This document shows, one piece after another, positions 24,201 through 30,200 of a stretch of 64,000 nucleotides of DNA. Positions within the stretch are counted from its first letter, which is position 1. The number at the start of each line of letters is the position of its first letter. The DNA is from Escherichia coli O157:H7 (lineage in GTDB: Bacteria > Pseudomonadota > Gammaproteobacteria > Enterobacterales > Enterobacteriaceae). The stretch lies in the NCBI RefSeq assembly GCF_013167455.1, contig NZ_CP038328.1. The stretch is one strand, 5' to 3'. Made by a program: the position numbers.

Positions 24201-27200
24201 GTGGATCTGGTTTTCGCGCCCTCGGTAAAAGAGATCTACCCGAACGGTACTGAAACCCATACTTACGTTGACGTTCCAGGGCTTTCGACCATGCTGGAAG
24301 GCGCCAGCCGGCCGGGGCATTTTCGCGGCGTGTCGACTATCGTCAGCAAGCTGTTTAACCTGGTCCAGCCGGACATCGCCTGCTTCGGTGAAAAGGACTT
24401 TCAGCAACTGGCGCTGATCCGCAAAATGGTTGCTGATATGGGCTTTGATATTGAGATTGTCGGTGTGCCAATTATGCGCGCCAAAGACGGTCTGGCACTG
24501 AGTTCCCGTAACGGTTATCTGACGGCAGAACAACGCAAAATTGCGCCCGGTCTGTACAAAGTTTTAAGTTCGATTGCCGACAAATTGCAGGCTGGCGAAC
24601 GGGATCTCGATGAAATTATTGCTATTGCCGGGCAAGAACTGAATGAAAAAGGCTTCCGCGCCGATGATATTCAGATTCGCGATGCCGACACATTGCTGGA
24701 AGTCTCTGAAACCAGCAAACGGGCAGTAATTCTGGTAGCCGCCTGGCTTGGCGATGCTCGCCTGATCGACAACAAAATGGTCGAGCTGGCGTAATACTTA
24801 TACTCTAAATAATTCAAGTTGCAAGTTGCAGGAAGGCGGCAAGCGAGTGACAAATTCGTCAGGAACGAATTTGCCCAGCCGCAGGCTGGCCTTCGGTGAG
24901 AGACATGGATGTCTCTCATTAATCCCCAGGAGCTTACATAAGTAAGTGACTGGGGTTAGCGAACGCAGACGCAGCACATGCAATTTGAAGTATGACGAGT
25001 ATAACTGGCGCTACGGCTGATGGCGCCAATTATTAATTTGCCCCACGTCATGGCGATGGCGTCTGTAAGCAATTATTCATAACGCAGACAACTTAGTTAA
25101 TCAGCCTATCAATCTCAGCAAGAGATAAATTTGTCATCTCTGCAACGTCTTCCCGAGACATCCCTTTACTCAGAAAACGCTGGGCGAATTCTTGCCTCTC
25201 CTCCTGTCTTCCCTGCTGAATCCCCTTCTCAATCCCTTTCTCTTCAAACCACTGTGCCAGCGTCATCATAGACTTCCCTCCCGTTTCCCTGTCTCTCAGC
25301 ACACCATAAAACAAATCCGCTTGTTCAGTATGACCGCGTTGCAGCATATAGTTTTGCATGGCAACTAACTGACTTTCGCTAGTGTACCCTTCGTCAATCA
25401 GCGTGACCAGTTGCTCCAGCAATAACATTAAGTCGCGCTGGCGAATATGTTTTTGCAGTAGTTCGAGAATCGCAATCCGCCGATGTTGCATGATTTCGTC
25501 ATCCGGTGTGATGGTGATATCCACCAGCGGGAAAGGACTGTTATAGACGCGTCGCGCCAGCTCCGGCGAGTAAAACATATCAAACCAGCACATTGAGAGC
25601 GGATAAGGTGTGGCCTCGCCCTGATAAAAGAGAATCGGCACTACCAGCGGTAGTTTGTCGTGATCCGCCTCCAGATGCCGATGCATGGCGGCTATAGAAT
25701 AACGCATCATGCGAAAGGCCATTTTCTTATCCGGCTTGCTTTGGTGTTCAATCACAACATGCAGATAACCGGGATTGCCCTGCATTTGCACGGAATAGAG
25801 CACGTCCGTGCTGTGTCCTTTAAGGCTCTCTTCAATGAAACTCCCCGACTCTAAATGAAGCGTGTTGAGGTCACAAAGTTCGCGTAATTCCACTGGCAAA
25901 TGTATCTCCAGAAAGTCGCGAGCCGTCTCCGCATGCATTAAAAATTGTTTAAATACCGCGTCATGCGGTGTGGTACTCGGTGCATCCATCTTCCCTGTCT
26001 TCCGTGTTGTCTTGCGTGAAGGCAGTATCCAGTCAAGGCGTGCTATCGTCAGCCACCTCTTTATTGTTTACCGAGCAGCGTTCAGAGAAATATCAATTCG
26101 TTACAGGCGATACATGGCACGCTTCGGCGCGGTACGCAAACTGCTGATGCAAATGCCGTCAGATGAGTAGACACTAAACAAAAATCGGGCAATACTGCGT
26201 GAGAATTTCCTCAAAGCAGGCACCGCCTGCTTCGTTAACGACAGGGTAGAAAGGTAGAAGTTATGATTCGCACGATGCTGCAGGGCAAACTCCACCGCGT
26301 GAAAGTGACTCATGCGGACCTGCACTATGAAGGTTCTTGCGCCATTGACCAGGATTTTCTTGACGCAGCCGGTATTCTCGAAAACGAAGCCATTGATATC
26401 TGGAATGTCACCAACGGCAAGCGTTTCTCCACTTATGCCATCGCGGCAGAACGCGGTTCGAGAATTATTTCTGTTAACGGTGCGGCGGCCCACTGCGCCA
26501 GTGTCGGCGATATTGTCATCATCGCCAGCTTCGTTACCATGCCAGATGAAGAAGCTCGCACCTGGCGACCCAACGTCGCCTATTTTGAAGGCGACAATGA
26601 AATGAAACGTACCGCGAAAGCGATTCCGGTACAGGTTGCTTGATTGTTATCCCTGCGGCTGGTTACTCACCAGCCGCGACATCGTCTCCAGCGAATCCGT
26701 TCTTAAGATATAAAGTCGTTTTAGTAACAACGGATTATCCCCCGGTTTTACTTTGCCTTTCATGGTTGTCACCGCCAGGTGAAATCCGGCATCGTTTGCT
26801 GCCTTCACGGCTTTGTCATTAAAGCCGCCAAACGGATACGAAAGATACCAGACATGCGGATTAAATTGCGCCAGAGCGCGACGTGAACGTGCAAAATCAA
26901 ACAGAATATTGTGCTCACTACGGCTCAGTAATATGGGTCGGCGATAACCATCTACCCGATGCAAAAAATGGGTATGTGACTGGAAATCAAATACATCGCG
27001 AATTTCGTTAAGCTCAGAAACGCTCATAAATTGCAGCGATTTTGGTTCCCACTTCTGCGGGTGACGTTTGATGCGCGAGGTAACAATAAACGCCGTCGCC
27101 TTCATGCCATATTGTTTCAACACAGGATACGCATAGCGGCTCACTGACTTGAGGCCATCATCAAAGGTAATCACCACCGCTCGCGCAGGAAGATTGATCT

Positions 27201-30200
27201 TATTCTTCACGTAACCTTCCAGCTGCACCATGCTCAGTGTCGCGTATCCCCTGTCGCGCAGCCAGGCCATCTGGTTATTGAAAGCGCGTACCGAGGTGGT
27301 CGTCGAAGTATGGCGAAAACGGGTGTTTTCTTCGTCGCGCAGAATATGGTGATAGGTTAGCACCGGAAGGCCATTATCGGGTTGGGCATCCAGCGCGCTG
27401 ATATAGGCCAGTCGATCGCCAATACGGATCTGATACCAGGTTTGATTTAACCTGTCTTTCAGTTTATGCAAAATCGGGTAGCGCAAATTGTCCGCCAGTA
27501 CCCCAAATGGCGCACTGCCCACACTCGGCGCGTTATAGACCGGCGTATCTTTCCAGGTAACTAAGTTCTGATTACTCAGCGGCTTGTTGAGGTCACCCAA
27601 ACCGTCTTCAACTTTTTGTCGCCCCTGAACCGGCTCAAGATGACCTTTATCGATAAACCCTTTATCAAAGCCAAAATTAAATGCGTAATAACTTGCGGCA
27701 GTGGGCTCCACGGCAATGATTTGTCCGGCCCGAATATTCCCCACGGTCACCATCTTGTCACCAATTTGCGCCCAGACCGCAGCATTTTCGATGGTTTGCA
27801 TATAACGGGCAGGTAACGCGGCACTGACACTTGCGGTAAACAGCATCAGCAGGAGAATAACAGCTTGTTTGTACATGAAAAAATCACCGAGGGTGAAACA
27901 ACGCTTTTATTGTAGCAAAAGCGCCATCAGAATCGCGGGTTAATACTCATACAAATTATGTTTGAGGACGAAAGGCGGATTTTTTTGTTGCTGGTGCCAA
28001 ATACTACTCACCTCCGGCGCACCCAGTTCGACAATACGCTCGCGAAACTCTGAACTGGTCATGGTTTCACGGCAAGCCATCATCTGTTCAATTAACGGTA
28101 ACGTGACACCAGAAATCACTTCGCAACGGGAGTGTTTGTGGCTTAATAATGAAGCCACGCGGTACGGTGGCGCTCCGGCTATATCGGTTAAGAAGATGAC
28201 ACCCTCACCAGAGTCCGCTTCATGCAGAGCATCGCACATCATGCGGCTGAGCATATTAGAACTTAATCCGCGCCAGAAATTCACGGCCCGGCACTGAAGA
28301 AGCGCCCCATGTTTTTTCTCCAGCACATCCAGTATCTCTTGCGCCCGGTCATCGTGACAGGTAATTACCCAACCTAACATCGCCTTCCTCCTTAGCCGAA
28401 AATCAGTCTACCCTGACCATTGTTGATAAAGGGTGATAGCCGTCAAAACTCCTCTCCCCCAAATCCAGAGGAGAGGAAATAGCCTTAGCTACGCAAACCA
28501 CGTCCACGTTGGATCAGCGACCAACAGATCAAATAAAACGCCACAATAAAGACCACCAGTACGCCAAAGGTAGTGACCAGCGGAACATCATTGATACCGA
28601 GGAAGCCGTAGCGGAAACCACTGATCATATAAACGATTGGGTTCAGGTGCGACAGCCCTTGCCAGAACGGCGGCAACAAAGTCAGTGAGTAAAAGACCCC
28701 ACCCAAATACGTGAGTGGCGTTAACACAAAGGTTGGCACCAGGCTGATGTCATCGAACGTTTTGGCAAACACACCGTTCAGCAAACCCGCAAGGGAGAAC
28801 AACACCGCCGTGAGCACCAGGGTTAAGGCAACGAATACCCACGAATGCACCTGAAACGGCACAAAAAACAGTGAAATTGCCGTCACCAGAATGCCAACAA
28901 ACAGACCACGCGCCACGCCACCGCCGACATATCCGGCAATAATGACGTGAGTCGGAACCGGCGCTACCAGCAGCTCTTCAATATTACGCTGGAACTTGGC
29001 ACCAAAAAATGATGACGCGACGTTGGCGTAGGCGTTGGTGATCACCGACATCATGATCAGCCCCGGTACGATGAACTGCATGTAGCTGAAGCCATGCATA
29101 TCGCCAATACGCGAACCAATCAGGTTACCGAAAATAATAAAGTAAAGGGTCATGGTGATGACTGGCGGCACCAGCGTCTGCACCCAGATACGCATAAAGC
29201 GATGGATCTCTTTCGCCCAGATGCTTTTTAGCGCCACCCAGTAAAGATGCATCATGCGCGATCTCCTTGTTTTTCATTAACCAGTGAAACAAACAGCTCT
29301 TCCAGACGGTTAGCTTTGTTACGCATACTTAATACCTGAATGCCCTGCTCACTTAACTGCGTAAATACGCTGTTGATCCCCTGCTCACGCAGCACTTCAA
29401 CTTCCAGCGTCGCGGTATCGACCAGTCGATACTGATAGCCATCGAGCTTCGGTAACGGACTTTTCGGTGCGAGATCGAGAATAAAGGTTTCCGATTTCAG
29501 CTTCGCCAGCAGCGCCTTCATCGAGGTATTTTCCACCAGCTCACCGTGTTGAATAATGCCGATATTGCGGCACAGCATTTCTGCTTCTTCCAGGTAGTGT
29601 GTGGTGAGAATGATGGTGGTGCCTTTGTCGTTTAAATCCTTCAAAAAGCCCCACATTGAGCGGCGAAGTTCAATATCCACGCCTGCAGTCGGCTCGTCGA
29701 GAATCAGTAGTTTAGGTTCATGCATTAACGCACGGGCAATCATTAAACGGCGCTTCATCCCGCCAGATAACATGCGCGCACGTTCGTTGCGTTTTCCCCA
29801 TAAATCGAGCTGCTTAAGATATTTTTCGCTGCGGATGTACGCCTCTTTGCGCTCCACACCGTAGTACCCTGCCTGATTCACCACAATTTGCTGCACGGTT
29901 TCAAACGGGTTGAAGTTAAATTCCTGCGGCACCAGTCCCAACTGACGTTTAGCGTTCACGACATCTTTCTCGAGATCGTAACCAAATACGCTGACCCGCC
30001 CGGAGGTTTTATTTACCAGAGAGCTGATAATACCGATAGTGGTCGATTTCCCGGCCCCGTTCGGCCCGAGAAGCGCATAAAAATCACCCGCTTCGACCTG
30101 CAAATCTATTCCACGAAGCGCCTGAACGCCGCCTGGATAGTTTTTTTTAAGCTGTTGAAGTTCCAGTGCAATGGTCATAAATTTTTACTTACCTTACGTT

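Follow-up and report, generated by a model that had tools for sequence, protein, structure and literature searches.

The yadG-yadH-yadI-yadE cluster of Escherichia coli O157:H7 raises a simple question, namely whether four neighbouring genes read in the same direction form one functional system or only share a place on the chromosome. The cluster occupies positions 26647 to 30178 of a 64,000-nucleotide stretch of contig NZ_CP038328.1 (assembly GCF_013167455.1), referred to here as the window, and a preliminary description of this DNA had proposed that its products, an ATP-binding cassette (ABC) exporter of the ABC-2 type, an orphan enzyme IIA (EIIA) of the phosphotransferase system (PTS) and a secreted polysaccharide deacetylase, constitute a surface-glycan or envelope modification/export module. 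The analysis reported here leads to another reading, to which we give a probability of roughly 70%: yadGH, yadI and yadE would be three adjacent transcription units held by core-genome synteny, and not one machine. The envelope-related character of the products stands, YadE being a predicted exported protein and YadGH an ABC-2 exporter, whereas the single four-gene module is not supported, given a conserved terminator, separate promoters, uncoupled phyletic patterns and distant relatives of YadE that mostly lack an ABC-2 or EIIA neighbour.

The gene positions, the strand and the spacings reported before were recovered exactly by the open reading frame (ORF) call: all four genes lie on the minus strand, as do the features described below, with a 4-bp yadG/yadH overlap (ATGA), a yadH-yadI gap of 104 bp (28381-28484) and a yadI-yadE gap of 63 bp (27877-27939). 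The domain assignments (ABC-2 exporter, mannose-family EIIA and CE4 deacetylase) are likewise borne out by Pfam. The window comes from E. coli O157:H7, to which its DNA is 100% identical, and the stretch of about 5 kb around the cluster is 100% identical to several O157 chromosomes. The region is found in 5422 of 5426 complete E. coli genomes, in agreement with its description as conserved core; the four genes, core genes of E. coli and its relatives, are long-annotated K-12 genes, and in this respect the finding is ordinary. Within the window the neighbours are can, hpt, gcd and panD, the cluster being flanked by can, divergent from yadG, and by panD, convergent with yadE. Co-orientation by itself would carry little weight, since finding four adjacent genes in one orientation is nothing unusual for a bacterium.

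The first argument for separate units is found immediately after yadH. Six nucleotides past its stop codon lies an intrinsic-terminator-like hairpin (TTCCTCTCCTC-loop-GGGGAGAGGAG) followed by TTTT (28445..28478), with a GC-rich stem of 12 bp and a folding energy of -20.8 kcal/mol (z -2.6). The comparison covered the 80 closest loci from bacterial assemblies sampled at one genome per species, all of them Enterobacterales, and a hairpin stands at the same position in 80 of 80, with a median of -19.3 kcal/mol and 78 distinct sequences; a T-rich tail (at least four T in the next nine nucleotides) follows it in 52. There is good evidence that this putative terminator is a real one and closes yadGH, because the structure is kept while its sequence turns over completely. 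It was missed by the promoter/terminator scanner, the E. coli tail being only four T, and was found by reading the sequence. The published promoter tables of Shimada 2014 give the unit as yadGH (PMC3946193).

Both downstream genes appear to have promoters of their own. Directly after the hairpin, and at a fixed distance of 58-61 nucleotides from the yadI ATG, the spacer carries a conserved CRP-like site, TTTGA-N6-TCACC (28432..28447); TGA-N6-TCA occurs in 59 of the 65 spacers between yadH and yadI, and in 2.3% of spacers after shuffling. When the 59 spacers are aligned on this site, a putative -10 hexamer becomes apparent, TAGACT in the window (28405..28410) and TAAACT in most genera, which starts 29 nucleotides past the centre of the site. 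Because of this spacing, the layout would be that of a class II cAMP-CRP promoter, with the site centred at about -41.5. In Reg-Seq the yadI promoter was independently reported as active in LB medium, acetate, galactose and stationary phase, with a CRP site predicted there, and an active yadE promoter was also reported, RpoS-dependent expression included (PMC12133099). The candidate for the latter is an extended -10 element, TGCTACAAT (27909..27917), inside the yadI-yadE spacer; it is conserved among these spacers as TTTTGYTACAAT, and the stretch ...CGCTTTTGYTACAAT is common to most genera. Just before the yadE ATG, a small hairpin (TCACC-CTC-GGTGA followed by T6; 27884..27896) lies over the likely ribosome-binding site. 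In most lineages that lack yadI, the yadH hairpin and the yadE promoter are retained and the CRP-like site is lost. At the sequence level a single operon, which would be co-transcribed across the cluster free of internal terminators and promoters, is not supported, because a conserved terminator follows yadH and conserved promoters precede yadI and yadE.

The distribution of the genes points in the same direction. The order hpt-can-yadG-yadH-yadI-yadE-panD is kept in most Enterobacteriaceae, yet the neighbourhood comparison that the preliminary description had recommended reveals losses, insertions and separations that uncouple the genes. Kosakonia, Pseudescherichia, Siccibacter and the loci L053, L058 and L051 (the last labelled Escherichia sp. 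ESNIH1) have yadE and lack yadI (L numbers designate the loci and contigs compared), one locus labelled Klebsiella sp. (L064) has yadI and lacks yadE, and both genes are absent from Pantoea, Erwinia and Mixta, where yadGH abuts panD. In Shimwellia a yadI-yadE-panD block stands apart from yadGH. Citrobacter sp. On2M (L019 7819-13221) carries a complete chaperone-usher fimbrial operon, inserted on the opposite strand between yadH and yadI, Enterobacter sichuanensis (L069 7658-13357) carries another between yadI and yadE, and both gaps seem to attract fimbrial clusters as sites of insertion. A module would be expected to stay together and to co-occur outside close relatives too; independent losses and insertions are seen instead, and the phyletic patterns of yadGH, yadI and yadE are uncoupled.

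Several points nevertheless weigh against the reading as three units. The order yadGH-yadI-yadE is preserved through most Enterobacteriaceae, and yadE adjoins yadGH, with no yadI, in the distant Thorsellia. In Pseudescherichia, yadE starts about 7-10 nucleotides past the yadH stop, and co-transcription of yadH and yadE would be at least tolerated there, because a deletion puts yadE directly after yadH. As far as the sequence goes, transcription could run past the yadH terminator or on from yadI into yadE, and a literature search found no biochemical assay of YadE or YadI. Moreover, observations linked to lipopolysaccharide (LPS) or polymyxin exist for all three units and could reflect a shared role: two papers citing Babu 2018, through which that study enters here, give YadH a role with Mla in outer-membrane lipid asymmetry, yadE shows aggravating genetic interactions with core-LPS (Rfa/Lpx/Kds) pathway genes (PMC2672614), and a yadI knockout has been reported as colistin-tolerant (PMC12624714). 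Pseudescherichia vulneris and a close relative (L044, L051; ~7768-7810) have lost yadI together with the yadH terminator and the yadE promoter, which leaves a de facto yadG-yadH-yadE operon, solely in this lineage.

Such observations could be accommodated by one module in which YadGH flips or exports a lipid-linked glycan containing N-acetylglucosamine (GlcNAc), a periplasmic de-N-acetylation by YadE follows, and YadI has a tuning role. Besides the synteny, the Thorsellia and Pseudescherichia arrangements and the LPS- and polymyxin-linked literature, this proposal can draw on the nearest solved relatives of YadH, the glycolipid exporters Wzm (6OIH, 6M96; E 5e-6) and TarG (6JBH; E 0.004), and on the place of YadE in the PgaB/IcaB clade, a group in which the enzymes function alongside export systems of their own. 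The matches to Wzm and TarG are weak, however, no glycosyltransferase or synthase gene is annotated within the 64-kb window, the Erwiniaceae keep yadGH without yadI or yadE, and no ABC-2 gene adjoins the YadE homologues of Plesiomonas, Pasteurellaceae, Serratia and Firmicutes. Taken with the conserved terminator, the separate conserved promoters and the opposite-strand operons in both gaps, these facts make a single module unlikely, and three transcription units kept side by side by synteny remain the preferred account, within which each unit has to be considered for itself.

By its sequence, the first unit is an ABC-2 exporter operon, probably translationally coupled, that ends at the intrinsic terminator. 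Its ATP-binding subunit is encoded by yadG (29252..30178; 308 amino acids), which matches Pfam ABC_tran with 115.9 bits (2.8e-33; cut-off 25); Walker A (GPNGAGKS), signature (LSGGMKRR), Walker B (LLILDEPT) and H-loop (TTHY) motifs are legible in the translation, and about 70 residues extend beyond the Pfam ATPase and AAA matches. The separate permease is encoded by yadH (28485..29255; 256 amino acids), with matches to ABC2_membrane (PF01061; 5.9e-40, 137.5 bits, cut-off 26.9) and to NCBIfam PRK15066 (449.9 bits, cut-off 225), so that both the ATPase motifs and the permease expected of an ABC-2 exporter are present. Translational coupling of the pair is suggested by the ATGA overlap of the yadH start with the yadG stop. 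Assignment to a narrower subfamily is not obtained, since YadGH exceeds the cut-off for its own generic NCBIfam model only: DrrA, the best match of YadG, scores 238.6 bits (cut-off 312), and DrrB (78 against 223), NodI (146-170 against 424-549) and NodJ (54 against 207) also fall below their thresholds.

It is possible, although not what we would expect, that YadGH is chiefly a small-molecule drug efflux pump, with fosfomycin among its substrates and no dedicated envelope role. Fosfomycin efflux has been proposed from the finding that yadG deletion halves the fosfomycin minimum inhibitory concentration (MIC) and that overexpression reduces intracellular fosfomycin (PMC11980398), YadGH is among listed predicted ABC drug pumps, and its best NCBIfam matches are the DrrA and DrrB drug-resistance subfamilies. 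The MIC effect is just twofold, however, both Drr scores lie under the curated cut-offs, and the work of Babu 2018, as represented in the two citing papers, places YadH with Mla. Very strong purifying selection together with core-genome status across Enterobacterales would rather suggest a housekeeping substrate, the ratios of nonsynonymous to synonymous substitution (dN/dS) being ~0.03 for yadG and yadH, 0.07 for yadE and ~0.11 for yadI, the last from four comparisons. According to a review, YadGH orthologues adjoin mla genes in beta-proteobacteria. On a Thorsellia-type contig (L087), mlaA (959-1711) lies ~3.3 kb upstream of yadG with four genes between them, an observation that is noteworthy solely given the papers tying YadH to the Mla system.

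The second unit, yadI (27940..28380), encodes a stand-alone mannose-family EIIA of 146 amino acids that matches Pfam EIIA-man with 107 bits (7.9e-31; cut-off 21.4) and that would be expressed from its own promoter of class II cAMP-CRP layout. In an alignment with the IIA domain of ManX, His9 and Asp66 fall in the phospho-His region, His9 taking the place of ManX His10, and 64 of 67 orthologues have His9. An extra C-terminal tail, S126-W-H-Q-Q-x-K-x-P-P-F-x-L139, is almost invariant. The label of orphan EIIA holds at the 64-kb scale, as neither a cognate EIIB, EIIC or EIID gene nor any other PTS gene is annotated in the window; the homologues listed with an organism name are all from Enterobacteriaceae, bar one unidentified endosymbiont. 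YadI most likely accepts a phosphoryl group at His9, and the partner on which it acts would be encoded away from the cluster. Its function has been called elusive (PMC12133099, 2025). The colistin tolerance of the yadI knockout may reflect a promoter effect on yadE, since the 3' end of yadI runs up to the promoter region of yadE. In Franconibacter (L059, L060) and Pluralibacter (L079), His9 is replaced by Arg, with Asp66 changed to Glu as well in Franconibacter, and the remainder of the protein, including the C-terminal tail, is still conserved; such orthologues hint at a function independent of phosphotransfer.

That the partner of YadI is instead encoded next door, with YadI acting as a PTS-dependent regulator of the YadG ATPase, seems quite improbable. 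The analogy would be with EIIA-Glc on MalK or EIIA-Ntr on ABC transporters, and we know of no precedent for a mannose-family EIIA in such a role. It has been described that PTS EIIA proteins can switch ABC transporters (PMC3665714); yadI, where present, always directly follows yadGH, its invariant tail could serve as a docking motif, and the ~70 additional residues of YadG could be counted on the same side. Against this, yadI is younger than yadGH and less widely distributed, it disappeared at least four times from lineages that retained yadGH, the phospho-His has become Arg in Franconibacter and Pluralibacter, and a literature search found no interaction data. An independent yadI unit with a partner elsewhere is the reading we retain.

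The third unit, yadE (26647..27876; 409 amino acids), would be transcribed from its own extended -10 promoter and its product exported to the periplasm. The N-terminus (residues 1-19, ...SVSA|A; 27820..27876) looks like a Sec signal peptide cleaved by signal peptidase I, in accordance both with the preliminary description and with the prediction of Hu et al. 2009 (PMC2672614), and residues 1-20 have low confidence (pLDDT) in the AlphaFold 2 (AF2) model. The K-12 record (L081 6082-7311) names the product "putative polysaccharide deacetylase lipoprotein"; the word lipoprotein is not supported by the sequence, because the predicted signal peptide has no lipobox cysteine, Cys being absent from residues 1-30. 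Two all-beta segments of the model, at residues ~24-82 and 100-162 (27391..27807), are predicted SH3b domains: 26 of 43 family members match Pfam SH3_3 (best 1.1e-10), and the weaker Foldseek matches, taken over the YadE model as a whole, include several NlpC/P60 proteins, which presumably carry SH3b domains. Such domains are best known for peptidoglycan binding, and YadE is likely held on the cell wall by them.

Residues 165-409 (26650..27384) form a CE4 deacetylase domain of PgaB/IcaB/PplD type according to Pfam and Foldseek, with a match to Polysacc_deac_1 (PF01522) of 77 bits (1.5e-21; cut-off 23.1). The AlphaFold model has a pLDDT of 91.4 and a predicted template modelling score (pTM) of 0.88, and its C-terminal domain superposes on PplD (6DQ3; TM score 0.87-0.88), IcaB (4WCJ; 0.85) and the N-terminal domain of PgaB (0.75). 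The residue roles in PgaB-type CE4 enzymes are established, and H176, D239, D240, H301, H306, D327 and R387, invariant across 43 aligned homologues, are, by alignment to IcaB, the predicted catalytic base, metal triad and catalytic acid. The Asp-Asp motif, the two metal-binding histidines and the catalytic histidine of a CE4 deacetylase are thus all present, and alignment and predicted model show the fold and catalytic residues of YadE to be intact.

A search of 1.8 billion representative proteins returned 241 relatives of YadE below 1e-30, and the best 150 of these include many full-length homologues with 26-49% identity, from Plesiomonas (two paralogues), Thorsellia, Pasteurellaceae, Serratia and Firmicutes such as Metasolibacillus. 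The homologue adjoins mukFEB on a Pasteurellaceae-type contig (L088) and on a metagenome contig (L082), lies between two fimbrial operons in Serratia (L090) and stands alone in Metasolibacillus; among these distant homologues it follows yadGH solely in Thorsellia, the others being mostly unlinked to ABC-2 or EIIA genes. Because a stand-alone wall-anchored enzyme of this kind occurs in Gram-negative and Gram-positive bacteria, a ubiquitous substrate is to be expected. YadE most likely de-N-acetylates GlcNAc of peptidoglycan or of another wall- or LPS-linked glycan by a metal-dependent CE4 mechanism; we infer peptidoglycan as the first choice, with an LPS-linked sugar as its main rival. YadE has been called a protein of unknown function in a study that lists three exported proteins with a deacetylase fold in E. 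coli, all but YadE being characterised (PMC12440217, 2025).

The rival, in which YadE acts on an LPS- or lipid A-linked sugar and not on peptidoglycan, the resulting free amine changing surface charge, is doubtful but has several observations in its favour. Of the two Plesiomonas paralogues, one adjoins an LpxL-type acyltransferase gene (L083) and the other PAP2 and EptA genes (L085, L086), the yadE deletion interacts with Rfa/Lpx/Kds genes as already mentioned, and paralogues of the catalytic domain are found on plasmids. A pO157-type plasmid (L093 4983-9793) and the Shigella flexneri virulence plasmid (L094 4968-8865) encode such paralogues, Ecf1 and Shf/SfPgdA respectively, with 26-29% identity to YadE, at the head of operons that also code for a glycosyltransferase, for CptA or VirK, and for a second LpxM. 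On the other hand, the same architecture exists in Firmicutes, which have no LPS, the SH3b domains would favour peptidoglycan, two neighbourhoods in one genus are thin evidence, and Ecf1, which aligns from its residue 7 and seemingly lacks a signal peptide, would work in a different compartment. In addition, SfPgdA has been reported to deacetylate peptidoglycan, with protection from lysozyme (PMC7355660). Peptidoglycan keeps its place as the preferred, though still presumptive, substrate.

Functional cooperation could in principle persist despite separate transcription, with a PTS-phosphorylated, cAMP-CRP-controlled YadI gating YadGH and an RpoS-induced YadE de-N-acetylating an exported or wall-bound GlcNAc polymer. 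We regard this as very improbable; if it were true, carbon status would be linked to envelope charge and to polymyxin or lysozyme tolerance, and the colistin tolerance of the yadI knockout could be the result of a changed YadGH activity or of a de-repressed yadE promoter. The three-unit reading stops a tempting but wrong operon inference. The preliminary description had held that independent transcription with unrelated, already assigned functions would speak against a common system; independent transcription is what the conserved signals indicate, and unrelated assigned functions were not found, the databases and literature searched assigning none to yadI or yadE. Its statement that the cluster is functionally undefined holds for these two genes (PMC12133099, PMC12440217); functions have been proposed for YadG and YadH. 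What appears new is modest: the structure-conserved yadH terminator, the conserved class II CRP layout of the putative yadI promoter, and the predicted architecture and catalytic competence of YadE. Two modest leads follow, the substrate of YadE and the role of CRP-controlled yadI, and the useful questions are narrowed to the target of YadE, the partner of this EIIA and the native substrate of the strongly conserved YadGH. If YadE makes free amines in the stationary-phase wall or LPS, this would bear on lysozyme and polymyxin tolerance.

Some observations concern the surroundings of the cluster. The stop codons of yadE and panD (26263-26643) are 3 bp apart (26644-26646), leaving no room for separate terminators, and in an RNA-seq survey the two genes appear as a pair of convergent, overlapping transcripts (PMC12288877). 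In Escherichia, the recombination-promoting nuclease gene rpnC (25093-25989, minus strand) lies between panD and panC; because the panD-panC distance is shorter in most other genera, a lineage-specific insertion is suggested. An Rfam search of the region returned nothing credible. An unusual divergence of yadI and yadE within E. coli was considered, comparing K-12, O157, L001 (labelled E. coli) and L004 by nucleotide identity, and rejected: identity between K-12 and O157 in this region is 97-100%, and the "E. coli" locus L001, the divergent one, has 88-96% identity even across flanking genes. Between E. coli and cryptic-clade Escherichia (L001, L004), nucleotide identity is down to 68-80% over most of yadE and the yadI 3' end, the genes flanking this patch being 90-100% identical, so that ~26650-28100 forms a local fast-evolving patch between the two.

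Compared with known systems, the three units each resemble established families and depart from them. YadGH shares the ABC-2 architecture and the overlapping ATPase-permease gene pair of Wzm-Wzt, TarGH, DrrAB and NodIJ, but lacks adjacent glycan or antibiotic biosynthesis genes and resembles them weakly. YadI belongs to the fold family of AgaF and the ManX IIA domain, with phospho-His and Asp aligned; it is closest to AgaF yet under the equivalog cut-off of NCBIfam (102.1 against 130), and differs in its extra tail, in having no EIIB, EIIC or EIID gene within 64 kb and in the three orthologues that lack the His. For YadE, one known enzyme of E. coli to compare is the periplasmic SddA (YibQ), the septal denuded-strand deacetylase acting on GlcNAc of peptidoglycan, which is a member of another family (PF04748) and whose gene shares an operon with envC. 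The product glucosamine-anhydro-N-acetylmuramic acid (GlcN-anhydroMurNAc) is gone in a yibQ mutant (PMC12440217), and YadE is therefore not needed for that product under those conditions. SfPgdA, Shf and Ecf1, from plasmids of Shigella, enteroaggregative E. coli (EAEC) and pO157, fall in the catalytic clade of YadE, the identity given above being over the domain, but are shorter (273 amino acids), without SH3b domains and apparently without a signal peptide, and their genes, unlike yadE, belong to an operon for LPS/lipid A modification. By sequence as well as by fold, the catalytic domain of YadE comes closest to PgaB and IcaB, which de-N-acetylate poly-N-acetylglucosamine (PNAG), and to PplD, a streptococcal linkage-unit de-N-acetylase, all exported enzymes. 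YadE is nevertheless no PgaB or IcaB equivalog, as it scores far under both cut-offs (PgaB 103.7 against 321.9; IcaB 96.7 against 248), only the N-terminal domain of PgaB aligns, its C-terminal domain and lipobox being absent from YadE, and yadE has no neighbouring synthase or porin gene, nor any pgaC- or icaA-like neighbour in the window. What YadE shares with PgaB, IcaB and PplD is the Asp-Asp motif, the H-x4-H pair (H301/H306) and the histidine of the N-terminal YHH, a catalytic equipment that in YadE is combined with two SH3b domains in place of the PgaB C-terminal domain.

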